A DNA stretch of 64,000 nucleotides from sequence record OQ032512.1; one strand, 5' to 3'. Positions within the stretch are counted from its first letter, which is position 1. Every line of letters begins with the position of its first letter. Of this stretch, positions 1 through 45,165 are shown in pieces. The position numbers were made by a program, and so were the translations under genes. Below the pieces are notes generated by a model. The model saw nothing but the letters and a program-made list of their open reading frames with translations, was not told the origin of the DNA and ran no database searches. The DNA comes from Acinetobacter phage nACB2.

Positions 1-90
1 GATAGATTTCATCTAGATCGAGCATTGGATAATATGTATAATATGTCATATCCAATGAAGCGCGTGTTGTTAGATTTCTACAATCGTTAA
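1..90 (+). CDS. 3' end of a CDS that starts outside the window (about 29 codons ending in TAA at 88-90)
   Basis: Open frame from position 1 to TAA at 88-90, followed directly by a terminator hairpin. Too short to assess further. Confidence 0.25.
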   Translation, partial: DRFHLDRALDNMYNMSYPMKRVLLDFYNR

Positions 91-1272: not shown

Positions 1273-1359
1273 TTTGATACACTCGTATTTGATTTTAGAA
1301 AATAAAGCTATTATGAGTTATACTAAGGGTGAATTATACAAACAGAGATTCAATAACTC

Positions 1360-3235: not shown

Positions 3236-5373
3236 TGTCTCATATCAATTTCAAATCTCTTGAAGCAAAGAACTTTCGTTCCATTGACAACATGGGTTTA
3301 AAAGTAGATTTTAAGAGTGGGAAAACCACTCTAGTTGCATCTACCGACAATGGATCTGGTAAATCTTCCATTTGGCGCGACGCCTTGTTCTATGCCTTGT
3401 TTGATAAACCGTATGCCAAGGGGCAGTCAAAGACACAGCTTATCAACTCGCGCTCAGGTAACAAACTGTACGTCAAATTGCAATTTGAAAAGGGTGGCGT
3501 TGACTACATCATTGAACGCGGACAAAAACCTTCTGTTTTTGAAATCACGGTAGATGGAGAAAAGTTGAATAAAGAAGCAGTTGATTTTCAAAAGACTCTT
3601 CTCGATATTCTTGGTGCAGATGAAAAGCTATTCTCTAACAGTATCATCTTGGGCGCGGACAAATTTGTACCGTTCACCAATATGGGGGCTGAAGAGCGCC
3701 GTCGCTTTGGAGATCAGATGCTCGATCTCATTGTAATAACAAAGATGAGCGCCTTGAACAAAGAACGATTGAAGGAGGTGAACCAAAATATTACTTCCAC
3801 AAATCAAAATTTATCCATTTTGGAGACGCGTCAGACAGGCATTGAAGCTATTATCAGCGCTAAAAAGGCTAACTCAGTTGATCTTCAGAATCGCATCCAA
3901 GAAGACATAAACAACCTAGAGTCAGACAAAGCAGCATATGAGCATGATAAAAACGTAGCTGAATCCGACGTTTCTTCTCTAGAGGAGTACGTTGAAGAGA
4001 AAAGAACTGCTAAAGCTCAACAAGAACAGGTATTGTTAGAAAAATACAAACCTCTTATTGAAGAAGCGCGCAAAGGCATTGCTGAAGCTGAGAATCTAAG
4101 TGCAGATGAATTAACTGTTTGTGTTAACAGCCTTCAGGATAGTCTTAATCAATGTATGATGTCTATCACTAAAGAAGAGAAGACAATCGCTGAACAACGC
4201 AAACTCTTCAAAGAACAATTCGATACGCGTCAAAAATACGAAGATATGGTAGTGGCTCTGAAGAATAAACTTTCAGAGTTGAAAGAGCCAAATAAAGATG
4301 AACCGTGTTCTCATTGCGGCGGTATAGTAGGTGAACAGTACTATCAAAAGCATCTTGATGAATATAACGCTAAGCGCCAGAAGCTGGAAGATGGTATAAA
4401 AGCAGCAGAAATGAAGGTTCAAGAAGGCGTGAACCTAGATTCTCTGTTTGCTCAATGGGAAGAACACTGCGAGAATGAACTCGAAGGTTATCGCAAAGAG
4501 CAGAAACAACTTTCTGAAGAATTGAATGACGCTAAGGTGAACCGTGGTACATTTGAGAGCGATCGTCATAAAAAGATTTCAGACGCTAAGCATAAGTTGT
4601 CACAAGTCCAAGCTGATCTTACTCGCGAAACTCAAGAAATTATCAATCCATTAACTCAAGAACTGAATAAAGTCATTTCTGATCTAGGTTACAAGCGTCA
4701 AGATGTAGAGCGCCTTAATGGTCTTATGGACAAACTACATCAAAACATTCTGTCTAAACAACAACAGTTAGAATCCGCGAAGAACAACAGCTCTTATTCA
4801 ACTGAGGAAGCTGATTTGGTTGAGTGTCAGCATGAAATCAATGAACACAAAAACATTCTGGATGAATGCTACAAAAAGCAAGCTATCGCTAATCTTTTGA
4901 CGCAATCTCTAAAAGACGACGGCATCAAAGCCAAGTTGGTTGAAAATTATCTACCGTATATCAATGATCGTATCAATTTCTATCTTGAAAAGATGAATTT
5001 CTTTGTACGCATTGAGCTGAACCGTGAATATGAATTGGAAATGTTTGCTCCAGAGCGTAAGGGGCAAAATATCCATTGTTTATCAGCTGGTCAGCAGAAG
5101 CGTATCGATCTGTCTGTACTACTTGCGTGGCGCGATCTAGCTCGTCAGGCGTCCACTAATAGTTGTAACATTCTTATCATGGATGAGTTATTAGAAGCGA
5201 TGTCGGAGTCAGGTATCATTGACTTCATGGAAATGTGGCGTACTATTGAAGAATCGAAGTACACTAATCTTGTGGTCATTACTCAACGTAAAGCTGAATT
5301 TGAACCTCTGTTCGATGAGTGTAAAATGTACAAGTTGGTTGATTTAGCAACAGTGGAGATTGAAAATGAGTAA
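3235..5373 (+). CDS. gp46: Rad50/SbcC-like recombination ATPase (T4 gp46-like)
   Basis: Walker A (TDNGSGKSS). Segment ERGQKPSVFEITVDG matches the gp46 N-terminus. Long central coiled coil with a CxxC zinc hook (CSHCGG). C-terminal signature and D-loop (LSAGQQKRIDLSVLLAWRDLA ... LIMDE). Confidence 0.85.
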   Translation: MSHINFKSLEAKNFRSIDNMGLKVDFKSGKTTLVASTDNGSGKSSIWRDALFYALFDKPYAKGQSKTQLINSRSGNKLYVKLQFEKGGVDYIIERGQKPSVFEITVDGEKLNKEAVDFQKTLLDILGADEKLFSNSIILGADKFVPFTNMGAEERRRFGDQMLDLIVITKMSALNKERLKEVNQNITSTNQNLSILETRQTGIEAIISAKKANSVDLQNRIQEDINNLESDKAAYEHDKNVAESDVSSLEEYVEEKRTAKAQQEQVLLEKYKPLIEEARKGIAEAENLSADELTVCVNSLQDSLNQCMMSITKEEKTIAEQRKLFKEQFDTRQKYEDMVVALKNKLSELKEPNKDEPCSHCGGIVGEQYYQKHLDEYNAKRQKLEDGIKAAEMKVQEGVNLDSLFAQWEEHCENELEGYRKEQKQLSEELNDAKVNRGTFESDRHKKISDAKHKLSQVQADLTRETQEIINPLTQELNKVISDLGYKRQDVERLNGLMDKLHQNILSKQQQLESAKNNSSYSTEEADLVECQHEINEHKNILDECYKKQAIANLLTQSLKDDGIKAKLVENYLPYINDRINFYLEKMNFFVRIELNREYELEMFAPERKGQNIHCLSAGQQKRIDLSVLLAWRDLARQASTNSCNILIMDELLEAMSESGIIDFMEMWRTIEESKYTNLVVITQRKAEFEPLFDECKMYKLVDLATVEIENE

Positions 5374-5581
5374 TCTTGTTGTATTAAAGGAAGGACGTTG
5401 GATTGTAGATATATCTCAGGTTGCGTCTGTGTTTATCACTAAACGATGCGATAATATCTACGTCGCGTTGAAAGGATGTGAAGAAATGGAACGCTTCTAT
5501 GACACCAAAGCGGAATGCGAAATTGACTACAAAGTTTTATCAGAAGCGCTTTTATCGCATCACGCAGAAACAGAAATTTGA
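5360..5581 (+). CDS. hypothetical protein
   Basis: 73-aa ORF overlapping the gp46 stop. Followed by a terminator hairpin. Confidence 0.4.
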   Translation: MKMSNLVVLKEGRWIVDISQVASVFITKRCDNIYVALKGCEEMERFYDTKAECEIDYKVLSEALLSHHAETEI

Positions 5582-5598
5582 TTTAGAATGAAAACAAA

Positions 5599-5635
5599 CC
5601 CTGAGATTATAATAGTCTCAGGGTTTTTATTTTTG
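5599..5635 (+). terminator. Terminator hairpin with a TATAATAG -10-like box in the loop
   Basis: Stem CCCTGAGA/TCTCAGGG, loop TTATAATAG, then TTTTTATTTTT. Confidence 0.6.
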
Positions 5636-5644
5636 GATAATACA

Positions 5645-5839
5645 ATGCTTTTTGAGATAAAGGCGTCCGAGTACGTTAATCTGAAACATGTTGCTTTCCT
5701 TAGTCTGGGGCGCTACGATCCGTATAGTTCAACGTACTCTTTTGTAGAGGTTACAATGACATCAGGTATCAAAATGACATTCGAACGCGTTGAAAATATA
5801 GTGGTTGTTAATATGAAAGCCAAAATGGGTGAGTTATGA
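5645..5839 (+). CDS. hypothetical protein (start moved to an internal ATG)
   Basis: The listed ORF 5588..5839 would run through the terminator hairpin. The ATG at 5645 (MLFEIK...) lies after the T-run. Confidence 0.4.
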   Translation: MLFEIKASEYVNLKHVAFLSLGRYDPYSSTYSFVEVTMTSGIKMTFERVENIVVVNMKAKMGEL

Positions 5840-6162
5840 ATGAAAGACATAAAGCTGCTAGCGTCAACCTGCTAAAGATAATGGAACAAAAACTCAAGTT
5901 ATTCGAGAATACTAATTCTGTTAAAGAGCTTTTTGAAATGGTTTGTCGCAGTATTGAATCTGAACAGGACTTTCATGCTACGGTGAAAGATGGTGGTATC
6001 GTCTATTCAAAAGAATATACCATGAAGGGTATGGCTAGTATAGAAGCAATACAAGGTATGTGTATAGAACTTACATTACGATATGGGCCATACGTAAAAA
6101 CAGCAAAACCTACCAGTATGCGCTCTGTTAAGATAGAACTATACGGAGAAGCCTTCCAATGA
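5836..6162 (+). CDS. hypothetical protein
   Basis: 108-aa ORF with ATGA overlap to the previous ORF. Confidence 0.45.
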   Translation: MNERHKAASVNLLKIMEQKLKLFENTNSVKELFEMVCRSIESEQDFHATVKDGGIVYSKEYTMKGMASIEAIQGMCIELTLRYGPYVKTAKPTSMRSVKIELYGEAFQ

Positions 6163-6171
6163 TTTGATTAT

Positions 6172-6220
6172 TTTACAAACCCAAGCCCTGAGTTTATAAT
6201 AGTTCAGGGCTTTTTATTTG
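6172..6220 (+). promoter_or_regulatory. sigma70-like promoter (TTTACA-17-TATAAT) whose spacer and -10 box sit in a terminator-like hairpin
   Basis: TTTACA at 6172-6177 and TATAAT at 6195-6200. Inverted repeat AGCCCTGAG/TTCAGGGCT (6183-6210) with loop GTTTATAATAGT, followed by TTTTTATTT. Confidence 0.55.
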
Positions 6221-6228
6221 GTAGCAAT

Positions 6229-7293
6229 ATGATTTATGAACTAATAGGCTACGTGAATCAGGTAGGCATGCGGCTTGAAGGCTTCAAGCGCGTCAGAGAC
6301 AACGTTTGGAATGCGCGTTGCCCTATCTGCGGCGATAGTCAACAAAGAAAGGGTAAACAGCGTTTCTATATCCATCCTGATAAGGAACGCACAACACTTA
6401 TGACTTCTTGTCGCAACTGTTCATACGCATCACCTTTTCTCTATTTCTTGAAAGACCACTACAATGACTTATATCTACAAGCTATTATGGATATATTCAA
6501 GAATAAGGCTGAACGCAAGCCCAAGAAGGTTGAACAACCAGTTGAAGCCGAAGTTACATTAGATGAAACAAACGTTGAGCGCCCCTTTCTTGAACCCATT
6601 GAAGGTCTTGACAATCTTCATCCAGTAATGAAATACGTGAATTCTAGATACATTCCTAAGCAGAGATTCTCTAGACTTGCTTGGTGCGAGAACTTCAAAG
6701 AATTCAGTTTGAAGTTTCCAGAGTATCAAGAAAACAATGAGATGCCCGAAGATATGCGTTTGTTGATACCATTCTATGACTCAAACAATAGAATGACACA
6801 TATTCAGGCTCGAGCTATTGACCCTAACGCATACATTCGATACATTACATTGAAGTTAGATGAGAAAGCGCCTAAATGGTTTGGCGTTGAAAGTCTGAAG
6901 GAAGGTAAACGCTACGTGATTGAGGGACCAATTGATAGTTTATTTCTACCTAACTGTGTAGCCACAGCAGATGCTAACTTATTATCGTATCCGGATGGAG
7001 ACATATACATTCCAGATAATCAATATAGAAACAAAGAAATTGTTCAAATTGTTGAACGCATTATTGATTCAGGAAAGTCTGTAGTTTTGTTTCCGTCCTC
7101 ATTTGCCCATAAAGATATCAATGACGCCGTTATAGACGGAGTACCTTTGTCTGAAATCTATATGATAATCAAAAGTAACACATTCAAAGGTTTAGCAGCT
7201 AAACTTGAATGGTCTCAACGTCAAAAGGTAGTGACTAACAATGGATTTAAGCGTAGAAGAAATAAAGCACATAATAACTTCTCTGGATTTTAG
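6229..7293 (+). CDS. gp61: DNA primase (T4 gp61-like; zinc ribbon plus Toprim)
   Basis: N-terminal CPICGD..(17)..CRNC zinc ribbon. Toprim-like acidic motifs (IEGPIDSLFL ... DADANL). Confidence 0.75.
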   Translation: MIYELIGYVNQVGMRLEGFKRVRDNVWNARCPICGDSQQRKGKQRFYIHPDKERTTLMTSCRNCSYASPFLYFLKDHYNDLYLQAIMDIFKNKAERKPKKVEQPVEAEVTLDETNVERPFLEPIEGLDNLHPVMKYVNSRYIPKQRFSRLAWCENFKEFSLKFPEYQENNEMPEDMRLLIPFYDSNNRMTHIQARAIDPNAYIRYITLKLDEKAPKWFGVESLKEGKRYVIEGPIDSLFLPNCVATADANLLSYPDGDIYIPDNQYRNKEIVQIVERIIDSGKSVVLFPSSFAHKDINDAVIDGVPLSEIYMIIKSNTFKGLAAKLEWSQRQKVVTNNGFKRRRNKAHNNFSGF

Positions 7294-7633
7294 AATCCAC
7301 AAGATGGAGGAAGATTTTCATCAGGTGCGATATCCTGACCCAGATGAAAGAATTAGATTTATCAAAGGGTATAGAAAACTATCTGAAAAGTTCAAAGAGG
7401 TTTTGGAATCTGCGTTTGATGACGGAAAATCAAATTTCTCAGTTCCGTCTACCATAGATGGTTTAATAGAAGTAACCAAGGTCAAGGCTTTTAGTGATAC
7501 AGAACAACTGAATGAGTTTCTAACAAGGAAATGTGTCAATAAGGTTGTTTCTATAACTCCATGGCTGCGTAACCATGGTTACGCAGAATATCTTTTAACA
7601 TACACTGAGATAGTCGAAAACATTGATCAGTAA
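7241..7633 (+). CDS. hypothetical protein
   Basis: 130-aa ORF overlapping the primase 3' end by 53 nt. AAGGTAG lies upstream of the ATG. Confidence 0.4.
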   Translation: MDLSVEEIKHIITSLDFRIHKMEEDFHQVRYPDPDERIRFIKGYRKLSEKFKEVLESAFDDGKSNFSVPSTIDGLIEVTKVKAFSDTEQLNEFLTRKCVNKVVSITPWLRNHGYAEYLLTYTEIVENIDQ

Positions 7634-7666
7634 ATTGCGAATTTTGTAATTTTTGGTCTGTAAAGT

Positions 7667-8116
7667 ATGGATCAAAACACATATATTTTTACACAACCAC
7701 ACGGTAGTTTGGAGAACATTATGCAATACTACGCTTTGAGTCTTTCTTCTGAGATATCAGATTTTATGAAAAGTCGTATGACAGATATGGGGCGCGGAGT
7801 CTTCACCTTATCCCATATTCCAGCTAGACACTTTTTAGATTCATTCCGTCATCCTGGATATACTGTAGATGACAAATACGATTACGTTTCTCTAGCTGTA
7901 CTGCGCGGAGAAATACCATTTGAAGAAATACAGAATATGACAGAACAATGTAACGCCGTTTTAGTCACTGTTTTCGATGGAAAGTTGAGTGTCAATGGCG
8001 GTACATTGAAGACTAATGATATAGCCGTAATAAAGTCTGGAGATAGCATACGCCCATCAGCTAATGCACTTTGGGGTCTATTACCTTACGGTTCAGCAGT
8101 AGTTGCGACTATTTGA
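7667..8116 (+). CDS. hypothetical protein
   Basis: 149-aa ORF. Confidence 0.45.
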   Translation: MDQNTYIFTQPHGSLENIMQYYALSLSSEISDFMKSRMTDMGRGVFTLSHIPARHFLDSFRHPGYTVDDKYDYVSLAVLRGEIPFEEIQNMTEQCNAVLVTVFDGKLSVNGGTLKTNDIAVIKSGDSIRPSANALWGLLPYGSAVVATI

Positions 8117-8136
8117 TTTTTATTCATTTCAGTAAA

Positions 8137-8150
8137 TGACTCTATAATAG
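8137..8150 (+). promoter_or_regulatory. TGACTCTATAATAG box, identical to the 14-mer at 10771-10784
   Basis: Exact 14-nt match to the loop region of the 10766 hairpin. Here no clear flanking stem. Lies 27 nt upstream of the ATG at 8177. Confidence 0.4.
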
Positions 8151-8176
8151 ACGCAGATTGATATATTACCATTCTT

Positions 8177-10750
8177 TTGAGGAATACAATGCAACTTCAC
8201 GACACAGATCAAACCGTTTCAGTATCAGGCGGTACAGCTATTCAGATGACAATGGACGCCAACTCGGCTATTGGCTTTTCTCTTTCTATTGACAAATTGT
8301 ACGTTCATAAAATTGAGTCAGTGATTCGAGAAATTTGCTCCAACGCTCGTGACTCCCACGTAGAAGCTGGAAAAGCGGATGTGCCGTTTGAAATTTACCT
8401 TCCGTCTGAAATTTCTCCGTACCTTGTTATTAAAGATCAAGGTACAGGTTTGAATGAAGCTGATGCTATCAAATATCTGTCTCAGTTGTATTCTTCCTCT
8501 AAGCAAAATACAAACAAAGCAGTGGGCGCTTATGGCATCGGAGCCAAATCCCCTTTTGCTATCTCAGATTCATATAACATTGAATGTATCAAAGATGGTG
8601 TGAAGTGTTCATTCCAGTTCTTCCGTTCTGGGCGCAGCCTACCACAGTTAATGCTTTTAGATAAGTCTACGACAGATGAACCAAACGGCGTAGCTTTCCG
8701 TATTCACGTACGCGATCTTCAACGCAAGAAATATGAAGATGCTCTGAAGACTCAGATGTTCATGTTCGAGCCTAAACCTAATATTGACGGTGCAGCATGG
8801 CCATATGATAGACCTTCGTTGACTCTAGAGCGCGGAAATGTTCGAGCGTACAGAGCTGAAGATCAGCGTGAATTCTTCGGCGCTTTTGCTCTGGAAATGG
8901 GTGGCGTGACGTATCCATTCAAACCAGATTCTGTAAATCCTGAGTGCGAACAGTTATTCAAAGCTATTCAACAGACGCTAGGTTATAATGAAATTGTTGT
9001 GATTAGTGTTCCTATTGGTAGTGTAGAAGTACCAGGAGACCGCGAGCGCGTAGAATATAGCGACTTCACAATTGAAAATCTAGTGAAGGAGTTGCATAGT
9101 GTAGGGGATGCGTTTACTAAAGACAAGACAGAAGAATACTTGAAAAACTTTTCTGAAGTCAAAAACTTTCTTGAGGCAACAAGATTAGCCGCAGACTTTT
9201 CCGGAGAGATGAAGTATATGCTTCCGTTTGTGAGAAATACAAACGGCATGGAAAATTACAAAGAATGGACTATGTATGAGAAGCCTATCATCAACGAAAA
9301 GGGTGAAGTGGTAAATGTGACAATGCGTTTTGCCCCTTATAATACAGAACGTAGCGACTTTCACTGGACTTTCTCTGCGCCATTTTTTGAAGATACGCAT
9401 GTAGTGCAAACGACAGACGAGAAGGGGCAGAAAGTAGATAAGGTTGTTAAGAATTACAATCCAAAATATTCTTTTTCAAAAGCTTCCGTAGCGTATAATA
9501 GCACAAAGGTTGTTTTGGATCAATATGAGCATATAAAAATTTGGTCTTCAGGACAAGCATCGCGTTTCGACAACATGACTGTAATATTAGTTGATACAAA
9601 TTCTAAACCAGTTGCTAAGACAATAGAACTCTGGTTAGCAGAACCTACTACAACTGTATCTAATCGTAATATATACGTTGTTCGTTGCGCTGACAAGAGT
9701 TATGATTTTTCTGAGTTTGAATACATTCTTTCAGAATCTTTACCTGTAAACGTGAATATTGTGCGTTTATCTGAGCTGAAGTACACTAAGGCAGCAACAG
9801 ATAAAGTAAGCAACGCTGCTGGTTTTAGACGTATGCCAGCTGTTCTTGATTTGTTTGTACCAGAAACTAGGAAAACTCGCTTTGATACAAAGCCGTCTCA
9901 AATTAAGATGTCCGAACTTCAAGAACACTTCAAGGCTTATGATGAAGACAATTTGGATGAATCTCAATTCTTCGCATACGGTTATTTTGACGTTGACACA
10001 AACACAATATATTCAGATCCTGAACATAAGCAAAAGGTGGACATGAAAGCCCTTTCTATCATGACCACGGCTAGATACTTCGGAAAGTCAATTCTGTTGA
10101 TGTCTAAAACAGCAGCTAAGAAATACGGAGAAATTATCTCTGAGACAGGTATTCCTAATATTTCGGAGTTGTCGGACGCTGATAAGTGGTTCAAAACTTT
10201 AAGTTTAGAATGTAAATCCATTTGGATGTTCATATTGCGTTATCAATCGGTAACTATGAATAGCACAGCTCGCGAAAATCTAAACTATTTGGATGATTAT
10301 TTCTACAAAGTAGCTGAAGAAATATTTGATGTCTATAATCCTAAAGAATATCGTTACAACTGCGAACTAAGATTCCAAAATTTCGTTAATGCCATTCACG
10401 GTATAAGTTATAACAGCACTAACATTCGCAAAAAGTTTTTCAAAGACGATACTGAAGACCTACAGCATTTCAAAGACGCTATTTCTGTATTGTTCTATGC
10501 AAAACATTATCCTAAATCTCAAATTGGACGCAAGATAAACAATATCTTTAGAAACATACAAGGGGGGTACGTTGAAGAACGTGCAAAATCATTAGTGGAA
10601 AAGACTAAGAAAAATAATTCTGTACCAGAATCCTTTACTGAGTTTTTAGTTTATACGGCTCTGAATACTTTATCAGAATCGGATGCATTGAAAGCTGCAA
10701 TACGTTTTGAGAAACAAAGAACTATCTTTGATTTTAGTTTCCAAAATTGA
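8177..10750 (+). CDS. GHKL-superfamily ATPase, MORC/HATPase_c_3-like (857 aa)
   Basis: N-box ESVIREICSNARD (ExxxNxxD). G1 box VIKDQGTGL. G2 box GAYGIGAKS (the GxYGxGxKS form typical of MORC-type GHKL). No Toprim or GyrB transducer motifs in the about 650-aa C-terminal part. Confidence 0.6.
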   Translation: MRNTMQLHDTDQTVSVSGGTAIQMTMDANSAIGFSLSIDKLYVHKIESVIREICSNARDSHVEAGKADVPFEIYLPSEISPYLVIKDQGTGLNEADAIKYLSQLYSSSKQNTNKAVGAYGIGAKSPFAISDSYNIECIKDGVKCSFQFFRSGRSLPQLMLLDKSTTDEPNGVAFRIHVRDLQRKKYEDALKTQMFMFEPKPNIDGAAWPYDRPSLTLERGNVRAYRAEDQREFFGAFALEMGGVTYPFKPDSVNPECEQLFKAIQQTLGYNEIVVISVPIGSVEVPGDRERVEYSDFTIENLVKELHSVGDAFTKDKTEEYLKNFSEVKNFLEATRLAADFSGEMKYMLPFVRNTNGMENYKEWTMYEKPIINEKGEVVNVTMRFAPYNTERSDFHWTFSAPFFEDTHVVQTTDEKGQKVDKVVKNYNPKYSFSKASVAYNSTKVVLDQYEHIKIWSSGQASRFDNMTVILVDTNSKPVAKTIELWLAEPTTTVSNRNIYVVRCADKSYDFSEFEYILSESLPVNVNIVRLSELKYTKAATDKVSNAAGFRRMPAVLDLFVPETRKTRFDTKPSQIKMSELQEHFKAYDEDNLDESQFFAYGYFDVDTNTIYSDPEHKQKVDMKALSIMTTARYFGKSILLMSKTAAKKYGEIISETGIPNISELSDADKWFKTLSLECKSIWMFILRYQSVTMNSTARENLNYLDDYFYKVAEEIFDVYNPKEYRYNCELRFQNFVNAIHGISYNSTNIRKKFFKDDTEDLQHFKDAISVLFYAKHYPKSQIGRKINNIFRNIQGGYVEERAKSLVEKTKKNNSVPESFTEFLVYTALNTLSESDALKAAIRFEKQRTIFDFSFQN

Positions 10751-10765
10751 TTTTTAACTTAAATT

Positions 10766-10793
10766 GGAACTGACTCTATAATAGGTCAGTTCC
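10766..10793 (+). promoter_or_regulatory. Hairpin with TCTATAATAG loop just upstream of the 10811 gene RBS
   Basis: Stem GGAACTGAC/GTCAGTTCC (9 bp), loop TCTATAATAG. TTAACT lies 17 nt upstream of the TATAAT. No T-run follows; AGGAGAAGCCCAATG follows instead. Confidence 0.5.
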
Positions 10794-10810
10794 CAACTAG
10801 GAGAAGCCCA

Positions 10811-11935
10811 ATGGCTGTCAAATACACAGATGCACAAAAGAAAGATTACGCTATCAAAGCATGTAAAATCATCAAATCTGGTGGTTCTATTAACTCAGCT
10901 GCTAAAGAATTGGGTATTGCGAACCGTACTATCAAAAGCTGGATCGAGCAATACGCCCCTGCTGAAGCTACTGATAAAGACGGTAAAGAAGTTGAAGTCG
11001 AAACGACTCGAAAAGCGAAAGCAAAGCGCCAACCAGCAGCGAGCACCACTCGACGCAAAAAAGCAGGTGGAAGTAAAACCACTAAACCGAAACAGCAGAA
11101 AGCTACTACAGCAGAAGTTGGAACGGAAGCGCAAACTACAGGATCGGTGGAGCTGAAAGTTATCACTCTTCCAAACAGTACTGTAATCGCAATTGCTTCT
11201 CAAAGCCATGAAGTGAAAAAAGATCACCCTCGTTTCAACCAAATCAACATATTCTTGAGCAAAGTGGTTGATAATGTTATTACAGAAGATCAAGCCAAAG
11301 AACTTGAAAACCTAATTGAAGGCGAACAGGTTACTCAGCTGAAGACTTGGTCGCAGGGTAAACTTTCTATTGACAACGGCGTTGTGCGTTGGGATGGTAA
11401 ACCTCTTGTTGGCGGTCTGAAAGAAGTTATGTTGCGTCTGGCGGCTTCTGGAGATACGAAACGCCTCAAAAACTTCTCTGCTTTCATTGAGAAGGTGCGT
11501 CAGTGTGTATCTTATAAAGTCAACCAACGCTTCTTTGACTTTATCTCAAAGAACAGCCTTCAGATCACTGAAGATGGTGATATTATTGCATTCAAAGTAG
11601 TTCGTCATGACTATAAAGATAAACACTCTGGCACATTTGACAATAGCGTAGGCAAAACAGTCCAGATGCCTCGAAACGAAGTGGATGACCAAGACACAAA
11701 TACTTGTTCTAATGGTCTACACATTTGCTCTGAATCCTACATTAAGTCATTCAGCAGCTCTAATGACCGCCTAGTGTTAGTGAAAGTAGATCCACGCGAT
11801 ATCGTGTCTATCCCAACAGACTACAATTCGTCAAAGTGCCGAACATGCCGTTACACTGTAGTGAAAGACGTTACTGATGAATGGAAAGCTGGAAAGCATA
11901 TCCAATACACAGACGACTATAAGTTCAAAGCGTAA
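10811..11935 (+). CDS. HTH DNA-binding protein with a Lys/Ala/Thr-rich linker
   Basis: N-terminal helix-turn-helix (SINSAAKELGIANRTIKSWIEQY). H1-like basic low-complexity linker. C-terminal Cys-containing domain of unknown family. Confidence 0.55.
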   Translation: MAVKYTDAQKKDYAIKACKIIKSGGSINSAAKELGIANRTIKSWIEQYAPAEATDKDGKEVEVETTRKAKAKRQPAASTTRRKKAGGSKTTKPKQQKATTAEVGTEAQTTGSVELKVITLPNSTVIAIASQSHEVKKDHPRFNQINIFLSKVVDNVITEDQAKELENLIEGEQVTQLKTWSQGKLSIDNGVVRWDGKPLVGGLKEVMLRLAASGDTKRLKNFSAFIEKVRQCVSYKVNQRFFDFISKNSLQITEDGDIIAFKVVRHDYKDKHSGTFDNSVGKTVQMPRNEVDDQDTNTCSNGLHICSESYIKSFSSSNDRLVLVKVDPRDIVSIPTDYNSSKCRTCRYTVVKDVTDEWKAGKHIQYTDDYKFKA

Positions 11936-11972
11936 TGGTTTCGGGGGAGAAATCCCCCACTTTGGTGAAATG

Positions 11973-12353
11973 GATATGACAATCTTTTATATTGACTTAA
12001 AACAACGAATAGATGGCTGCTACGGCGCTTCTAATCTGAAACACGAAATACAACAGCGCGTTGAAGCTGGATACATCGTGCATTTAGACCTTAGCAATCT
12101 AACTAAAATACCTCAGTTAGACTTTTTTGAAGAAGGTATTTCTGAAATTATTACTGATGGTATGCCTTTAGAAAAATTGAAAGCGCATCTGAAGTTTAAA
12201 TGTTCTGAATCTGATCTTTTGAAGATTGTTGAATTATTGAAACAAGCAGAAAAGTCTAGATTCAATGCGCTGCGAAACAAAGATGTTTTGGGGCACTTAA
12301 AAGACACAATCAAAGGGTTCGGAAACAACCCAGTAGTATCACGGGGGCAGTGA
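11973..12353 (+). CDS. hypothetical protein (start moved to an internal ATG after a hairpin)
   Basis: The listed ORF starts at 11877, inside the previous gene. A GGGGGA/TCCCCC hairpin lies at 11942-11958, then GGTGAAATGG with the ATG at 11973. Confidence 0.4.
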   Translation, partial: DMTIFYIDLKQRIDGCYGASNLKHEIQQRVEAGYIVHLDLSNLTKIPQLDFFEEGISEIITDGMPLEKLKAHLKFKCSESDLLKIVELLKQAEKSRFNALRNKDVLGHLKDTIKGFGNNPVVSRGQ

Positions 12354-12772
12354 TGAAGTTTTATGTCGGTAGTGTAAAAATGGAACATGATGGTAAAAAC
12401 ATCTTTCTCACAACCGAGATAAAGCCCTCAGATGTTGAAGGTGTGAGTCCTTTATTAGATTGTGTAGCAAATCTAGACATCTGGGAATCTGATGATGTTG
12501 TAGAGTTGACATCAGCTATATGGTCTAAAAACGGTCTTTTACCATTTGATGTTATGTTTTTAACAAATTTCAGCGATGAAATAGTTTCTTATGAAGGTGA
12601 TGTTGATGTCATGTATATCAATATTCTAGACTTCAGATTGGCGCTAGTGAAGTTTGATGACTTCAATAGCTTATTCGTAGAGCGTAAACAGCTCAAACAA
12701 TTTGTGAATGCCCTAACAACTAACAGACAGGGTCGTTACACTCAACATGGGAGAAAGGCGCAATGCGCTTAA
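12350..12772 (+). CDS. hypothetical protein
   Basis: 140-aa ORF with overlapping stop and start. Confidence 0.45.
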   Translation: MMKFYVGSVKMEHDGKNIFLTTEIKPSDVEGVSPLLDCVANLDIWESDDVVELTSAIWSKNGLLPFDVMFLTNFSDEIVSYEGDVDVMYINILDFRLALVKFDDFNSLFVERKQLKQFVNALTTNRQGRYTQHGRKAQCA

Positions 12773-13575
12773 ATTTAAATCAGTATGGTATTTTACCTAA
12801 AATTGCTGCTATTGTTATTGCTATTATTGTGGGGTTGATTTTCTTATCATCTCTGTTCTTCACTGTACCAACAGGTCATAAAGGTATTGTAACTCAATTC
12901 AATGAATTGCATACGGTGAAAGACTCAGGCTTGAACTTCAAAATGCCATTTATACAAAAGGTGATCTTGGTAGACACGCGTACTGCTAAGGCTGAAACAG
13001 CTATTCAAGCAAACACGCGTGACATGCAACGCGTGTCGTCAAAAGTTGTAGTGAACTATCATATTAATCCGTCTAGTATTGAAAAATTGTTCAGTCAGAC
13101 AGGTTTGGACATTGAAACAAAGATCATCGATCCGCGTATCCAAGAAGCAACTAAATCCGTTGTGACAAAATATACAGCCGATCAATTGACAAAACAACGC
13201 GATGACGTGAAGAATGCTTTGTCTGTTGACTTAACAACGCGCCTTGCAAAGTACGGTATTGTAGTTGAAGACGTTCAGGTCACTGAATTCACTTTCTCCA
13301 AAGTTTTCTATGACTCAATCGAATCTAAGCAGATTGCTGAACAAAGTGCATTGAAGGCTGAAAATGACCTCAAGCGTATCGAAGTAGAAGCGAAACAAAA
13401 GATTGAAATGGCAAAGGCTGAAGCCGAAGCTATTCGCATTCAATCTGAAGCTGTTCGAGCTCAGGGTGGTACTGAATATGTACAGTTGAAAGCTATTGAA
13501 AAGTGGTCTGGTAAACTTCCTGAAACTGTAGTTGGCGGCAACGGCGCTCTTCCATTCATCAATGTAGGTAAATGA
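12763..13575 (+). CDS. SPFH/band-7 (prohibitin/HflKC-like) membrane protein
   Basis: N-terminal transmembrane helix, then a band-7 core (TVPTGHKGIVTQFN ... TRDMQRV ... YHINP). C-terminal Ala/Glu-rich coiled coil. Confidence 0.7.
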   Translation: MRLNLNQYGILPKIAAIVIAIIVGLIFLSSLFFTVPTGHKGIVTQFNELHTVKDSGLNFKMPFIQKVILVDTRTAKAETAIQANTRDMQRVSSKVVVNYHINPSSIEKLFSQTGLDIETKIIDPRIQEATKSVVTKYTADQLTKQRDDVKNALSVDLTTRLAKYGIVVEDVQVTEFTFSKVFYDSIESKQIAEQSALKAENDLKRIEVEAKQKIEMAKAEAEAIRIQSEAVRAQGGTEYVQLKAIEKWSGKLPETVVGGNGALPFINVGK

Positions 13576-13994
13576 TCATGAAAAAGTATTATGGTACAAA
13601 AGTATTAACAGCTGTTTCAATGACATTAGGTGCGTATAATCACACTCGTGGTTGGAATCTACCACCCAATGAAGATCCTGAAACAGAAGGTTATTTGGTT
13701 TGTTACCCAGACCAAAAACCAAATGTTGAAGGTTTTGATGGTTACGTTTCTTGGTCACCTAAAGATGTATTTGAAAAAACCTATAAAGAATTACCTGAGC
13801 GCGCATTGCCTCATCAAGAACGAGTGGATGTTGAACGCGCTCAGTTGAATGAACGCGCTGAAGGTCTTGAGTCATTCATTGGTTCAAGCGCATTCTTTGC
13901 CTTACCTCAGATTGAGCAAAAAAGTCTCACTGAACAACTTGAAGCCATGGTGTGGTACCGTGACATTTTAGATCAGCGGATCTCGCGTTTCTAA
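13572..13994 (+). CDS. hypothetical protein
   Basis: 140-aa ORF. A terminator follows. Confidence 0.45.
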   Translation: MIMKKYYGTKVLTAVSMTLGAYNHTRGWNLPPNEDPETEGYLVCYPDQKPNVEGFDGYVSWSPKDVFEKTYKELPERALPHQERVDVERAQLNERAEGLESFIGSSAFFALPQIEQKSLTEQLEAMVWYRDILDQRISRF

Positions 13995-14005
13995 AATACA
14001 GTCTT

Positions 14006-14040
14006 TGGAAAAGGAGCTTTATAGCTCCTTTTTCTTTTTA
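14006..14040 (+). terminator. rho-independent terminator
   Basis: AAGGAGCT-TTAT-AGCTCCTT hairpin followed by TTTTCTTTTT. Confidence 0.65.
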
Positions 14041-14225
14041 CATTAATACCTTTATGATAACTTAATGGAAGACATTATGCCAATGATATACTTGGTGTAC
14101 TGCGTAACATTTGTTATAGTAGCTGGTTACGCAAATGACAAACTCATTCACCCTAGCGTGTTTGTGCCTTTATCCTTGGCTGCTTCTTTAGTAGCTTCTT
14201 TAATAGCATTCTGTTTAGGAGTAAG

Positions 14226-14690
14226 ATGATGAATGAGCAAGAACGTATAAAATCAGATCAATCTTTTGATAGCGAGAGAATAGAGCTGACTAAAAAGTTG
14301 ATAGATGATCTATCATTTTTAGATTATTACAAAAAAGCCTACGTGAAGAGTGAAAGAGAAAGAATCACGGTGTATCTACCAGCTCATACTCCATTCTTGA
14401 ATGATGTATTGAATAGAAGCACTCTAGCTGTATCTCTTCAACACGACCTATTCTTGAAATATGAACTAGCTTTAACAGATTCAGCTGAAGTTCTACCAAT
14501 AAATACCGACCTTTTCCTTGGTAATAGCATGGTTCGTAACCGTATACAAGGGGTAGTGGTACCAATGATTGGAGTTTCGTTAAAAAGGGAAGCAGACGTA
14601 TTTGAAACAGTCACTTCCCTCATTATGTTTCAAAAGCATATAATGTCTACGCTTGAGAAACACTACTTTCCGATTGCAGGTTGCGAATGA
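14226..14690 (+). CDS. hypothetical protein
   Basis: 154-aa ORF. Confidence 0.45.
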   Translation: MMNEQERIKSDQSFDSERIELTKKLIDDLSFLDYYKKAYVKSERERITVYLPAHTPFLNDVLNRSTLAVSLQHDLFLKYELALTDSAEVLPINTDLFLGNSMVRNRIQGVVVPMIGVSLKREADVFETVTSLIMFQKHIMSTLEKHYFPIAGCE

Positions 14691-14949
14691 AGGCTTGTCT
14701 AGCCTTCTTCAATTCTCTGATCTTCTCGTAGGTTTGGTCATCGCAAGTCATAGCGCGTTCTACCTCTTCCAATGTATCGCAAACTAGAGCAATACCTGAA
14801 GGGAATGTAGAAATAACGTCTCCATTTTGTTCCACCTCTACTCTCATACCGTTGAAAGATGCGATGCGTCCAACGTTCCCAAAAGATTTATCAGCCTGAA
14901 GCGATATCATAACCGCAATGCGCCCTACTTCAATATTATTGTCGATCAT
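14647..14949 (-). CDS. hypothetical protein; the only - strand gene in the + strand early block
   Basis: 100-aa ORF with protein-like composition. Convergent with 14226..14690; the 3' ends overlap by 44 nt. Confidence 0.4.
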   Translation of the reverse strand: MIDNNIEVGRIAVMISLQADKSFGNVGRIASFNGMRVEVEQNGDVISTFPSGIALVCDTLEEVERAMTCDDQTYEKIRELKKARQAFIRNLQSESSVSQA

Positions 14950-15023
14950 ATCAATTCTCTTTGATTTTTATCCCAAACCGTAATATATAGTATAATTCTC
15001 TGAACTACAACGGAGACCATACA

Positions 15024-15578
15024 ATGAATCTCGAAAATTTGCGCAACCTTATCCTTTCAATGGCAGACGTGTCAACGCGTATTGTAAATCACGTAGAACA
15101 CGGCTTAGACTCAACCCTATTGAGTCAAGGTTTGTTTCGAGTTTTTACAGCTAACTACGAAACTCAAGTGCGCCTTCCACACTCTCACAAATACGATTTT
15201 GCTTGTCTAGTGCTCAAAGGCTCTGTATTGAATCGCTTGTATACGCCTATTGAAAATAGCAAATACAAAGAAAATAACGAGCTTCACGCTGAGTATTGCG
15301 TGACTATTCAAACTGGACAGTTGGGCGACTATAAGTTCAATAGACGTCAACGCCAAGCGTTTCAGATTTCTGAAAAACTTCATACTGAAGGTGAATGGTA
15401 TCAAATGAACTCAGAAGACATCCACACCATTCGCTTCAGTAAAGGCGCAGTTGTATTGTTTATTGAAGGACCTGCTAAAACCGATCATGTTGAAGTTCTA
15501 TTTCCGTATGCATCTAATGGTCGAGCGTACAATCCGCTAGACGACAGCAAAACATTTCTTACAGGCGACAAAGTTTAA
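15024..15578 (+). CDS. hypothetical protein
   Basis: 184-aa ORF. Upstream TATAGTATAAT and ACAACGGAGA RBS context. Confidence 0.5.
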   Translation: MNLENLRNLILSMADVSTRIVNHVEHGLDSTLLSQGLFRVFTANYETQVRLPHSHKYDFACLVLKGSVLNRLYTPIENSKYKENNELHAEYCVTIQTGQLGDYKFNRRQRQAFQISEKLHTEGEWYQMNSEDIHTIRFSKGAVVLFIEGPAKTDHVEVLFPYASNGRAYNPLDDSKTFLTGDKV

Positions 15579-15865
15579 TGAAAATAACAGATATAGGTCT
15601 AATGGCTGAAGCTTTGCGCGTTCCTATTGAATATATTCATATTATGCGCCAATCTGGTCTAGAATTTGAAGTCGTTATGGAACTGAATATTGAATCTTAT
15701 AGCGGTTCAATGACTCAAATGAAACCGCCTGTATCTGTTTCAGTAGGAAAATCTGGACTACGCTATGACCCAATTACAGGAGGTACTGTAAAAGTGTTCG
15801 AAGCGTATAACATCGAAATTATTAAGAATCTCATTAAGACATCAATGGAGAACAAAAATGTCTGA
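15578..15865 (+). CDS. hypothetical protein
   Basis: 95-aa ORF with ATGA overlap. Confidence 0.4.
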   Translation: MKITDIGLMAEALRVPIEYIHIMRQSGLEFEVVMELNIESYSGSMTQMKPPVSVSVGKSGLRYDPITGGTVKVFEAYNIEIIKNLIKTSMENKNV

Positions 15866-16175
15866 CGTTAAAAATGTAAACGAAACCAACCTTGTAAGCG
15901 TGGCTGTAAAGGTAGATGAGGCTTCAATTAAGGCTTCAACTGACTCGATTGTTCGTATTCTGGATGCGGCTGCGAAAAATCACACCAATGATAAAGTCAC
16001 TCTGAAAGCCCTAGACGCGTTCAAAGCGTCAGCCACAATTGAACACTGTCATTTCAATGGCTTCTCTATTGTAAATGACAACTCGCGCCGTACTGAAGTG
16101 AACGTTCAAGGCGATCCAAATGACGTAGACGCGGATGTCAATGGCGTGAAAGTGGATGGTCAACTAAATGGCTAA
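15858..16175 (+). CDS. hypothetical protein
   Basis: 105-aa ORF. Confidence 0.4.
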   Translation: MSDVKNVNETNLVSVAVKVDEASIKASTDSIVRILDAAAKNHTNDKVTLKALDAFKASATIEHCHFNGFSIVNDNSRRTEVNVQGDPNDVDADVNGVKVDGQLNG

Positions 16176-16430
16176 TGAATTTATCGGGTTCAAGATTCTT
16201 AGCGCGTCTAATATTACAATATCTTATTGTAACGTTGACGGCGGTTATAGACCAAAGAATCATAAGGTTGCTGTTCGGGTAACGAAAGATAAATTGATTT
16301 TAAGCCGTTAATTTGTCTTGACTATATAATACTGTTCATGTCAAGGCTCAGCCTAACTTGAACTTGGGTAGCTACATTTGACAAAGGGCTTGTCCTCCTT
16401 CCTCAACCCCAAGAGGAGAATGGACAGACT

Positions 16431-16507
16431 ATAACGTAATAACAATTGTTGCCCACTAAGTGAATGGGTCATGGAGTGGGTTATTCCCAATAGTTGTTAT
16501 TACGTTG
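16431..16507 (+). ncRNA. Candidate structured small RNA upstream of the tRNA cluster
   Basis: Long imperfect inverted repeat CGTAATAACAATTG ... CAAT(AG)TTGTTATTACG enclosing an inner CCCACT/AGTGGG stem. No coding potential. By analogy, the T4 tRNA region also encodes small stable RNAs. Confidence 0.35.
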
Positions 16508-16516
16508 TAGTTTGAA

Positions 16517-16593
16517 GCGCCTGTAGCTCAGTTGGATAGAGCATCCGCCTTCTAAGCGGATGGTCACAGGTTCGAGTCCTGTTAGGCGCGCCA
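16517..16593 (+). tRNA. tRNA-Arg (anticodon TCT)
   Basis: Cloverleaf folded by hand. Acceptor GCGCCTG/TAGGCGC (one G-U pair), D stem GCTC/GAGC, anticodon loop CTTCTAA, T arm ACAGG-TTCGAGT-CCTGT, encoded CCA. Confidence 0.85.
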
Positions 16594-16708
16594 CTTTCAA
16601 ACTCCAGAATGCGAGGACAACAGTATCACCCAGAACACGGCGGTGGTTGCGTTATTAGCATGGACAACGCGGCAGTCGGTAAAAGCCGTGGGCGTAGCAA
16701 TACGCTCT

Positions 16709-16784
16709 AGCCTAGTAGCTCAGTTGGTAGAGCAGCGGATTGTTAATCCGTTGGTCACAGGTTCGAACCCTGTCTAGGCAGCCA
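16709..16784 (+). tRNA. tRNA-Asn (anticodon GTT)
   Basis: D stem GCTC/GAGC, anticodon loop TTGTTAA, T arm ACAGG-TTCGAAC-CCTGT, encoded CCA. The first acceptor pair is an A-A mismatch. Confidence 0.75.
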
Positions 16785-16786
16785 TT

Positions 16787-16863
16787 GGGACTTTAGCTCA
16801 GAAGGTCAGAGCATCCGACTCATAATCGGGCGGTCACTGGTTCGAAACCAGTAAGTCCCACCA
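16787..16863 (+). tRNA. tRNA-Met (anticodon CAT; could be an Ile/lysidine type)
   Basis: Acceptor GGGACTT/AAGTCCC, anticodon loop CTCATAA, T arm ACTGG-TTCGAAA-CCAGT, encoded CCA. Starts 2 nt after the previous tRNA. Confidence 0.8.
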
Positions 16864-17000
16864 TATCCAGCGTTAGTGTACGGTGCACGTCAATACGGTA
16901 AACAGACGTATTGAAAGACTAGGGTTTAATTCCCTAGACAATGGGCCATATTTGATTTCTTATAAAAATAACAAACAGTAATAAAATAATCTCAGCAATA

Positions 17001-17315
17001 ATGGAGATTATAACATTGAAACTCTTATCATTCATCTACAACTATCTACGTTACATGCCAGTTCACTACTGGTTATTTTTCTTCTTCATGCCTGATCTGT
17101 ATTCAAAATACCCTCGCGTCAGCGTGAAGGGTCGATATAACATTAAGGTGTTCCGTGTCTACTTTGGAGCAAATGAAGTGGTTAATAAGTTTGTTGAAGG
17201 CTCTAAGAATAAAGCCTATATCAAACTGCGTTACGAAGCTCTGAGACAAGATTTTAGAACGCCGCAGCCACTAGGCGTTGAATACAGCATGAAGAAGGTA
17301 GAAAATGAAGATTGA
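17001..17315 (+). CDS. hypothetical protein
   Basis: 104-aa ORF. Its ATG sits in a small hairpin (TAATCTC/GAGATTA). Confidence 0.35.
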   Translation: MEIITLKLLSFIYNYLRYMPVHYWLFFFFMPDLYSKYPRVSVKGRYNIKVFRVYFGANEVVNKFVEGSKNKAYIKLRYEALRQDFRTPQPLGVEYSMKKVENED

Positions 17316-17511
17316 TCTAACGTTGCTTGAGTCATTGAAACGCGCTGCTGATGGGTCAATGTTGAGTTCTAGAATATCATTGAAACAGCAGATGAGTAGA
17401 AAGGAGCGCCAACTCAAGAAACGCAAAAAGGAAAATAAAGAATTTGAAGATTCCTTATTTTCTATGGGCGCTCATCACAGAGCCGCCATGTTTCAAAAGT
17501 ACTGGAAATAA
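17305..17511 (+). CDS. hypothetical basic protein
   Basis: 68-aa Lys/Arg-rich ORF. Confidence 0.3.
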   Translation: MKIDLTLLESLKRAADGSMLSSRISLKQQMSRKERQLKKRKKENKEFEDSLFSMGAHHRAAMFQKYWK

Positions 17512-17538
17512 AAATATTTGATTATTTCCGAAATAATC

Positions 17539-17612
17539 CTTTACTTCCGTTGATGGTTAGGGTATAATGAATCTCATAAGGTTCAATAACACTCAACGGA
17601 GTAAATCAAATG
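17539..17612 (+). promoter_or_regulatory. Early promoter P1 (CCTTTACTT -35 box, TATAAT -10) with a conserved leader TTCAATAACACTCAACGGAGTAAATCAAATG
   Basis: -35 TTTACT at 17539-17544, -10 TATAAT at 17563-17568. The leader is near-identical to the leaders at 18309-18341 (+) and 39014-39047 (-). Confidence 0.65.
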
Positions 17613-18212: not shown

Positions 18213-18217
18213 TAATT

Positions 18218-18252
18218 GAAGACCGAGATATTTTGAATATCTCGGTCTTTTT
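18218..18252 (+). terminator. rho-independent terminator
   Basis: GACCGAGATATT-TTGA-ATATCTCGGTC hairpin followed by TTTTTT. Confidence 0.7.
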
Positions 18253-18255
18253 TCC

Positions 18256-18341
18256 TTTACTTTTCTCTGGCGCGCCCACATAATTTTAATCATGGACAAC
18301 AAGTTCATTATTTAATTACACTCAACGGAGTACAAGATATG
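18256..18341 (+). promoter_or_regulatory. Early promoter P2 (TTTACT-17-CATAAT) with the conserved ACACTCAACGGAGTA leader
   Basis: -35 at 18256-18261, -10 at 18279-18284. Leader TTAATTACACTCAACGGAGTACAAGATATG. Confidence 0.6.
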
Positions 18342-18668: not shown

Positions 18669-18671
18669 TTT

Positions 18672-18705: not shown

Positions 18706-18747
18706 TTTTGCAATAATACTTCATAATTTCATTATTTGGAGAATGAT

Positions 18748-45145: not shown

Positions 45146-45165
45146 CTTTTGTTCCTACTGTAGAT

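Follow-up and report, generated by a model that had tools for sequence, protein, structure and literature searches.

Locus and repeated elements

We analyzed a 64,000-nucleotide stretch of DNA (the window) from Acinetobacter phage nACB2 (OQ032512.1), in which hairpins with the sequence TATAATAG in the loop recur between genes. An earlier note on this DNA had described five such sites. We found that the observation is mostly real, but that the unit is a probable promoter, TTGATT followed 24 or 25 bp later by TATAAT, and that the hairpin is an add-on.

The source phage is virulent and related to the Ackermannviridae. Its nearest relative, Acinetobacter phage SH-Ab 15599 (MH517022; Ackermannviridae according to the record), gave the sole DNA match to the window in the phage collection, and gene order is syntenic throughout. 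The syntenic genes include those for gp47/gp46-like nucleases, primase (6229-7293), rIIA (8189-10750, an 853-aa open reading frame (ORF) with 40% identity to the SH-Ab 15599 protein), rIIB (10811-11935), terminase and structural proteins, and also ssb (52971-54068), nrdB (56750-57793) and nrdA (57800-60433).

The window contains 14 copies of the motif, all of them intergenic and aimed at the next co-oriented gene. They are listed below with their accompanying structures. TTGATT is called the box, N24 or N25 is the spacer, and the predicted start site (+1) was placed 7 nt after the -10 hexamer.

1289-1324, plus strand: near copy with -10 TATACT, upstream of an SspB-like gene (1360-1764); the SH-Ab 15599 orthologue has the same TATACT
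5578-5638, plus strand: predicted promoter and terminator hairpin; TTGATT 5578-5583, N24, TATAAT 5608-5613; hairpin 5596-5626 with T-run; predicted +1 at about A5620 (3' arm); ORFan ATG at 5645
6164-6222, plus strand: predicted primase promoter and terminator hairpin; TTGATT 6164-6169, N25, TATAAT 6195-6200; hairpin 6183-6212 with T-run
8113-8150, plus strand: predicted rIIA promoter without a hairpin; shares the 14-mer TGACTCTATAATAG with the rIIB promoter
10747-10793, plus strand: predicted rIIB promoter; box 10747-10752, TATAAT 10777-10782, hairpin 10766-10793
14961-14996, plus strand: predicted promoter without a -10 hairpin, upstream of 15024-15578
16294-16330, plus strand: predicted promoter of a tRNA-Arg/Asn/Met cluster (16517-16863)
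16952-16987, plus strand: weak near copy with -10 TAAAAT, upstream of 17001-17315
18673-18727, plus strand: predicted terminator 18673-18690 and near-copy promoter 18692-18727 with -10 CATAAT; the TTGATTTTT box is the T-tract of the hairpin
44246-44332, minus strand: predicted promoter 44315-44280 with a hairpin on either side; upstream is a small one (44332-44318) for which the box serves as T-tract, and the terminator-like hairpin 44275-44256 starts 4 nt past the -10, with the predicted +1 in its 5' arm
45160-45220, minus strand: predicted promoter with -10 TATGAT, which lies in the 5' arm of terminator-like hairpin 45193-45170; T-run present
54128-54171, minus strand: predicted ssb (gp32-like) promoter; -10 inside the palindromic hairpin TGAGGGATATATAATATCTCTCA (54150-54128); no T-run
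56700-56747, minus strand: predicted promoter downstream of nrdB; box 56747-56742, N25, TATAAT 56716-56711; hairpin 56727-56700
61860-61903, minus strand: predicted promoter of the ORFan 61503-61835; 13-bp hairpin 61893-61860 with the -10 in its 3' arm; no T-run

A bipartite motif and probable promoter class

A search with the loop sequence alone gave no enrichment. TATAATAG occurs 6 times in the window against 2.7 expected, a count reached in 7 of 100 shuffles, and one copy (at 9494) falls inside rIIA. A larger motif, however, was far above chance. In the flanking sequence, the TATAAT of each hairpin loop lies 24 or 25 bp downstream of TTGATT. TTGATT-N24-TATAAT occurs 7 times (0.05 expected from Markov simulations) and TTGATT-N25-TATAAT 3 times (0.06 expected), giving 10 exact copies where approximately 0.1 would be expected. 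Four near copies with one mismatch in the -10 (1289, 16952, 18692, and 45220 on the minus strand) bring the class to 14. A histogram of spacings had a sharp peak at 24/25 in both the window and SH-Ab 15599, and the information in a position logo was confined to (a/t)TTGATTTt and TATAATa.

The box lies at approximately -42 to -36, directly upstream of the usual position of a -35. Among the window copies we found neither a conserved -35 at N16-18 in the logo nor an extended -10 (TGn). The earlier note had pointed to a perfect TTTACA-17-TATAAT arrangement at 6172-6200. This arrangement is real, but it is an exception, and the conserved upstream element is TTGATT at N24/25. Generic TTGACA-N16-18-TATAAT matches were at chance in two gene-dense early regions (65 and 46 matches, versus 55 and 53 by shuffle). 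We also considered an inverted partner of the box, AATCAA-N6-TTGATT, and dropped it, as it was found in only 2 of the 14 copies.

The distance from the -10 to the ATG is mostly 20-67 nt, with 13 nt at the weak copy at 16952 and 186 nt to the tRNA-Arg. All of the genes served in the window are non-structural: rIIA, rIIB, primase, ssb, a dexA-like gene, the SspB-like gene, the tRNA cluster and ORFans. The structural module of the window contains no copy. In SH-Ab 15599, time-resolved RNA-seq found early expression of non-structural genes (PMC13458397). The motif is tightly packed against the preceding gene. In five of the 14 copies, the TGA within the box is the stop codon of the upstream gene (5579-5581, 8114-8116, 10748-10750 for rIIA, 45219-45217 and 44314-44312), and in four others the upstream stop is no more than 3 nt from the box.

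Based on position, conservation and the perfect -10, TTGATT-N24/25-TATAAT is very probably a promoter class. The TATAAT boxes are very probably -10 elements, as the earlier note had proposed: their distance from a second conserved box is fixed, and co-oriented genes follow them. The idea in that note that a phage factor takes part in reading this promoter class is plausible, since a conserved -35 is absent.

The box is sometimes doubled. TTGATTTT recurs 20 bp upstream of the rIIB box (10727-10753), and there are TGATTTGATT tandems at 6160 (6160-6169) and at 61907 (61907-61898, minus strand), in which the upstream gene ends at the first TGA.

Hairpins at the -10

Four of the five sites reported previously are hairpins belonging to the class, and the fifth (23-57) is not a member:

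5596-5626, plus strand: 11-bp stem, AAACCCTGAGA/ttataatag/TCTCAGGGTTT, then TTATTTTT (direct reading and a scan for TATAAT-loop hairpins)
6183-6212, plus strand: 9-bp stem, AAGCCCTGA/gtttataatagt/TCAGGGCTT, then TTTATTT (direct reading)
10766-10793, plus strand: 9-bp stem, GGAACTGAC/tctataatag/GTCAGTTCC; no T-run; AGGAG and the rIIB ATG (10811) follow
56727-56700, minus strand: 9-bp stem, AATACAGGG/tttataatag/CCCTGTATT; no T-run
23-57, plus strand: inverted repeat with TATAAT in a 17-nt loop, atatgTATAATatgtca; no TTGATT box and no co-oriented gene downstream

The 23-57 repeat is in coding sequence, in the last 30 codons (frame 0) of an ORF ending at TAA 88-90, and nothing upstream of it is conserved. 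The sharing of the 14-mer between 8137-8150 and 10771-10784 was confirmed, as was the placement of the 10766 copy just before a ribosome-binding site without a T-run. The statement that T-runs would make several of these hairpins terminators holds for two of the four (5596 and 6183) and not for 10766 and 56727. We found three more hairpins that overlap a -10, all on the minus strand (54150-54128, 61893-61860 and 45193-45170).

We measured the placement of structure by folding 40-nt windows along the 14 promoters, taking a minimum free energy of -10 kcal/mol or lower as stable and giving offsets relative to the -10. Stable structure was found in 6-7 of the 14 promoters at offsets -4 to +8, in 4 of 14 at -8, on the flank of the peak, and in 0-2 of 14 elsewhere. 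The background of stable folds was 4.8% genome-wide and 15.7% in other intergenic DNA. By our own arithmetic on these figures, the excess of -10-centered hairpins has a binomial p of approximately 0.003. Seven of the 14 copies have a stable hairpin centered on the -10. The spacer between box and -10 had no stable folds (0/14) at five consecutive offsets in both genomes (-28 and -20 to -12 in the window; -28 to -12 in SH-Ab 15599). In SH-Ab 15599, structure had two peaks, one upstream of the box and one over or just downstream of the -10.

Three of the seven -10 hairpins have a T-run (5596, 6183 and 45193) and four do not (10766, 56727, 54150 and 61893). The former, together with 44275, have the GC-rich stem and U-tract of an intrinsic terminator; the latter lack the U-tract. 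Hairpins 5596 and 6183 ranked third and fourth in an independent scan for terminator-like sites, which also listed 45193 and 44275. The strongest terminator-like site of the window is at 18218-18250, a perfect 15-bp inverted repeat (GAAGACCGAGATATT...) with a T-run on the plus strand only.

Two other geometries were found. In one, the TTGATTTTT box doubles as the T-tract of a terminator-like hairpin just upstream of it; examples are 18673-18690, 44332-44318 and several SH-Ab 15599 hairpins. In the other, the terminator-like hairpin follows the -10 by 0-4 nt, as at 44275-44256 in the window and at the SH-Ab 15599 copies 56590, 59518 and 115273. The predicted +1 falls inside the hairpin in all 16 hairpin-bearing promoters of the window, SH-Ab 15599 and the metagenomic relative L005. 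For four window elements it is expected in the 3' arm, near 5620, 6206/6207, 10788/10789 and 56704. The calculated folding energy of RNA reading through from upstream was -13 to -23 kcal/mol, and that of the embedded promoter's own RNA was -0.4 to -7.5 kcal/mol.

Conservation in relatives

The motif and its spacing are conserved. In SH-Ab 15599 we counted 14 exact copies, again spaced at 24/25, and the genes behind them include those for ligase, primase, rIIA, HU and dUMP hydroxymethylase. The genes for DNA polymerase, uvsY, ssb and nrdA and the dexA-like gene lie behind copies that have a single mismatch, either in the box or in the -10. Variants of the form TTGATW-N24/25-TAnnAT were found in three metagenomic relatives identified through primase homologues (L005, L006 and L008). 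L131, a contig that matches window 7202-19448 at 84-97% identity, has variants as well. Neither rIIA nor a primase alignment retrieved relatives in protein-pattern scans of IMG/VR. A DNA scan of IMG/VR for TTGATTTTT-N21/22-TATAATAG gave, among the matches listed, only single chance-like matches and no multi-copy contig.

The stems change in ways that preserve pairing. Downstream of nrdB, where both phages have the loop tttataatag, the arms are AATACAGGG/CCCTGTATT in the window and ACAGATAGGG/CCCTATCTGT in SH-Ab 15599, with three double compensatory changes and no disruptions. Upstream of primase, the two phages differ by one compensatory change (G-C to T-A). Hairpins without a T-run are kept in both phages at two sites, downstream of nrdB and upstream of ssb. 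The arms of the rIIB hairpin are identical in L131, where AG in the loop is AT. In L010, a relative with 41% primase identity, the primase gene has a terminator-like hairpin, ACACCCTAA...TTAGGGTGT plus T-run, with TATAATAG in the loop and TTGCAA 17 bp upstream; the other promoters of L010 are canonical TTGACA-N17.

The hairpin is not a constant part of a given promoter. At rIIA it is absent in the window and L131, and L005 has ATGAGCC/GGCTCAT plus a T-run around the -10. At rIIB the window hairpin encloses the -10, whereas that of SH-Ab 15599 (GGGAAC/GTTCCC) is approximately 20 nt downstream of a TAATAT -10. A weak 6-bp stem at 16294 (CTTGAC...GTCAAG) is broken in L131 and was not counted as a conserved hairpin. 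As judged from these comparisons, the hairpins are under selection for pairing, and not for sequence or for promoter function.

Proposed composite promoter/stem-loop modules

We favor the interpretation that the elements are composite promoter/stem-loop modules on a lineage-specific promoter with a -40 box, and put its probability at roughly 0.7. Host RNA polymerase would read the -10, and the box would be read by a class II- or MotA-like activator. The class would drive genes for replication, recombination and nucleotide metabolism together with small ORFans. Since the upstream gene usually ends in the box or within 3 nt of it, the intergenic space consists only of promoter and leader, and a hairpin serving the upstream transcript must therefore overlap the promoter.

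Two slots would be available for a GC-rich stem. The first is immediately upstream of the box, which would double as the T-tract. The second places one arm in the spacer (approximately -22 to -14) and the other in the discriminator and start region (approximately -5 to +4), leaving the -10 in the loop. The embedded promoter would start its transcripts within the hairpin, usually in the 3' arm and in the other cases in the 5' arm. If so, its own RNA could not fold the hairpin and would escape termination, and RNA arriving from upstream would fold it. Hairpins with a T-run (5596, 6183, 45193 and 44275) would then act as intrinsic terminators or insulators for the upstream unit. Those without one (10766, 56727, 54150 and 61893) are most likely attenuators, processing sites or 3'-end stabilizers, with co-transcription continuing; because such hairpins are conserved between the window and SH-Ab 15599 at two sites, we think that they are kept in one of these roles.

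Several points weigh against this interpretation. Promoter activity, +1 and termination are all deduced from sequence. A gap of 24-25 bp is incompatible with ordinary sigma-70 recognition of a -35 and a -10, and the reader of the box is only postulated. "Terminator" does not fit four of the seven -10 hairpins, since these have no T-run, and the role assigned to these hairpins is the weakest and least secure step. Loops of 8-12 nt exceed those of typical terminators. Finally, the window hairpins are so tightly centered on the -10 that a direct role in initiation may be possible.

Alternatively, the elements might be PeSL-type recombination cassettes, like the repeats of T4-like phages discussed below, that flank ORFans and mediate excision, insertion or exchange, with regulation secondary. 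The elements at 5578 and 6164 are near-identical over approximately 38 nt and bracket an ORFan cassette (5645-6162); within a group of three small ORFs without an SH-Ab 15599 homologue (5366-6162), they flank two. Two of the three differences between the window and L131 also adjoin promoters (15574-16246 and 18740-18855). However, the copies other than the 5578/6164 pair have only the two short boxes in common, which would not suffice for homologous recombination. Most elements are at conserved positions in front of conserved core genes, and the indel at 18740-18855 is bounded by a TTTGGA repeat in the leader and not by hairpins. We consider recombination as the primary role unlikely.

Another possibility is a structure-dependent promoter, in which a cruciform or hairpin extruded in supercoiled DNA offers a single-stranded -10 that aids or gates the open complex, or recruits a phage polymerase as in N4. 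The stems of the window frame the -10 symmetrically (0-3 nt on each side), the structure is precisely centered on it, and an AT-rich loop would favor local melting. Nevertheless, half of the class (7 of 14) has no such repeat, and one and the same promoter occurs with, without, or with a further-downstream hairpin depending on the relative. This gain and loss argues against a structure-dependent promoter, and against the idea that the hairpin is part of promoter recognition. Most hairpins of SH-Ab 15599 are upstream of the box instead, loops of 8-12 nt would make cruciform extrusion costly, and the repeats lack the short stem (5-7 bp) and 3-nt loop that are the hallmarks of N4. Such a promoter seems very improbable to us. 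We also found no support for the suggestion, made in the earlier note, that the promoters are occluded by transcription-coupled folding.

Inverted repeats that flank a -10 are also the classic layout of an operator, here for a dimeric repressor or activator bound across the -10, and 54150-54128 is a perfect palindrome. The arms, however, differ from copy to copy (CCCTGAG, AACTGAC, ACAGGG, GAGGGATAT), which argues against an operator, and orthologues retain pairing through compensatory changes rather than sequence, the signature of a nucleic-acid structure and not of a protein site. We regard operators as a slim prospect. We give least credence to plain intrinsic terminators with a -10-like loop by chance: 5596 and 6183 are strong terminator-like sites and TATAATAG alone is not enriched, but the distance between a loop TATAAT and its box is always exactly 24-25 bp, hairpin-free copies of the bipartite motif precede other genes, the motif occurs 14 times in SH-Ab 15599, and two of the four reported hairpins have no T-run.

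Comparison with known systems

The PeSLs of T4-like phages are intergenic elements that combine a strong sigma-70-like promoter with a stem-loop terminator and fall into five positional subclasses (Arbiol et al. 2010, PMC2839356; Comeau et al. 2014, PMC4122927). The earlier note had compared the hairpins to these elements, and the likeness is apt. As in PeSLs, the stem-loop occurs in several registers (over the -10, between the boxes, upstream, and just after the -10), and it is read as a terminator or attenuator of the upstream unit. PeSLs are concentrated in hyperplastic, ORFan-bearing regions and at the edges of indels, a trait hinted at here by the 5578/6164 pair and by the two L131 differences that adjoin promoters. 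The stem-loops of the window lie within or adjoin the promoter as in PeSLs, 7 of 14 over the -10 and others flanking it. The same note had called a -10 in a hairpin loop unusual. This was overstated, since overlap with the -10 box is among the commonest positions of PeSL stem-loops (PMC2839356) and Ackermannviridae phage CBA120 has similar hairpins (see below). A middle-promoter version, PmSL, has been described in phage nt-1 (PMC2839356; PMC4122927).

The differences from PeSLs are also clear. The box of the window is TTGATT(T) at N24/25, compared with TTGACA/TTTACW at N17 or a Mot box (TGCTT), and only 6172-6200 has a -35 and a -10 approximately 17 bp apart (TTTACA-17-TATAAT). The host genome is that of an Ackermannviridae-related Acinetobacter phage, most copies are at conserved core genes, and shared sequence is short except at 5578/6164. 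A PeSL stem-loop is expected to terminate transcription, and PeSLs to recombine and form mini-circles; for the window elements, termination is predicted from sequence and recombination only hinted at. A -10 in a hairpin loop has precedent, and what is new here is a lineage-specific -40-box promoter that carries the PeSL-like design.

Hairpins 5596-5626, 6183-6212, 45193-45170 and 44275-44256 resemble intrinsic terminators in stem and T-run; they differ in that a promoter -10 lies in the loop or arm, and in having four sister hairpins that lack the T-run.

The promoters resemble the MotA/AsiA middle promoters of T4 in pairing a good sigma-70 -10 with a non-canonical upstream box that replaces the -35, and in serving the same gene set (rIIA, rIIB, gene 32, primase, polymerase, uvsY and tRNAs). 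T4 expresses these genes from MotA-dependent middle promoters. The box itself differs, however: TTGATT is 24-25 bp upstream of the -10, and TGCTT is approximately 12 bp upstream (near -30). A Pfam scan of 10 window proteins gave no MotA or AsiA match; no systematic search was made, and the window is less than half of such a genome.

PMC7283392 cites an early/middle promoter-like motif typical of the Ackermannviridae, TTCAAT[N14]TATAAT. It is similar in having a perfect TATAAT and an odd upstream box, and it differs in the sequence of the box, which in the window is approximately 10 bp (one helical turn) further upstream. As a promoter motif, TTCAAT[N14]TATAAT is absent from the window (one match, inside a gene) and present in CBA120. 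In the first 50 kb of CBA120, three of approximately six intergenic TTCAAT-type promoters have hairpins around the -10. The -10-enclosing hairpins of CBA120 are at 12816 (plus strand), 37489 (minus strand) and 31276 (minus strand), one of them followed by a T-run. The CBA120 box occurs in both orientations (TTCAAT and ATTGAA), and an ATTGA core is common to it and the window box.

The virion RNA polymerase promoters of N4 are likewise tied to an inverted repeat. Their hairpins are obligatory, with a 5-7 bp stem and a 3-nt loop, and those of the window have 8-12 nt loops and a sigma-70 -10 and are missing from half of the promoters.

A possible second promoter class and candidate reader of the box

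A second cassette is also repeated in the window. It has canonical spacing, cCTTTACTT-N17-TATAAT, and a conserved leader, CTCAACGGAG, comes after it. There are three copies in the window and at least six in SH-Ab 15599. The leader, (aataac)gCTCAACGGAG, ends 5-8 nt before the ATG.

17540-17609, plus strand: second cassette
18256-18338, plus strand: second cassette, with CATAAT
39085-39017, minus strand: second cassette

This cassette may be a host-sigma-70 (immediate-early) class distinct from the TTGATT class. The presence of two promoter classes suggests two temporal classes, and the TTGATT class would then need an activator. We tentatively raise the possibility, which we do not hold to be the probable one, that TTGATT(T)-N24/25-TATAAT is an undescribed activator-dependent, middle-type class of a small Acinetobacter-phage clade, with sigma-70 on the -10 and a clade-specific protein on the -40 box. 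The -10 hairpins would then be the clade's own version of the PmSL arrangement.

One candidate reader would be the 200-aa protein encoded at 17610-18212 (plus strand), expressed from the canonical CTTTACTT-N17-TATAAT class. The protein is restricted to the clade (five database homologues and SH-Ab 15599) and has two winged-helix-like halves, with Pfam winged-helix matches below threshold, joined by a Lys-rich linker. A sequence search of the PDB gave no match, and PHROGs matches were to families of unknown function only. The AlphaFold model was poor (predicted local distance difference test score, pLDDT, 59.5), and Foldseek hits were generic MarR/ScpB-like folds with E values of 1e-3 or worse. 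On this modeling, a role as box reader is speculative, a lead rather than a finding. In SH-Ab 15599 DNA, thymines are hypermodified with a preference for TG (PMC13458397), a dinucleotide that is also part of the invariant TTG of the box.

The analysis yields a usable map of predicted promoters and terminators for an Acinetobacter phage clade that has received little study and has a therapy candidate among its members. It would extend the T4-like composite promoter/terminator design to the Ackermannviridae and their relatives, and argues for a general answer to genome compaction, a terminator unseen by its own embedded promoter. The fixed 24-25 bp spacing of the -40 box points to a transcription factor, and the question worth pursuing is what recognizes TTGATT. 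The published time-course RNA-seq of SH-Ab 15599 (GEO GSE322957, 0-40 min) makes this question directly testable.

Other features

Rfam found only three tRNAs in the window. They form the cluster at 16517-16863 (plus strand; Arg-TCT, Asn-GTT and Met-CAT), with unannotated gaps of approximately 190 nt and 115 nt. Relative to the window, L131 is missing approximately 670 bp that hold small ORFs and adjoin promoter 16294 on its upstream side (15574-16246). It also lacks a 36-aa CxxC...CxxC ORF directly behind promoter 18692 (18740-18855), the indel with the TTTGGA direct repeat at its ends. L008 has approximately 800 nt without an ORF (17288-18101) behind a TTGATT-N24-TATAGT promoter; this stretch is rich in long inverted repeats, and Rfam returned nothing credible for it.

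The structural genes (upstream regions of 49176-51626 and 32942-38600) have neither promoter class. The Ackermannviridae late motif CTAAATAcCcc is not present there. Several structural genes are preceded by (A/T)TAAATA-like boxes, for example CATAAATATTTATG between 51568 and 51626, which recall the late promoters of T4-type phages.

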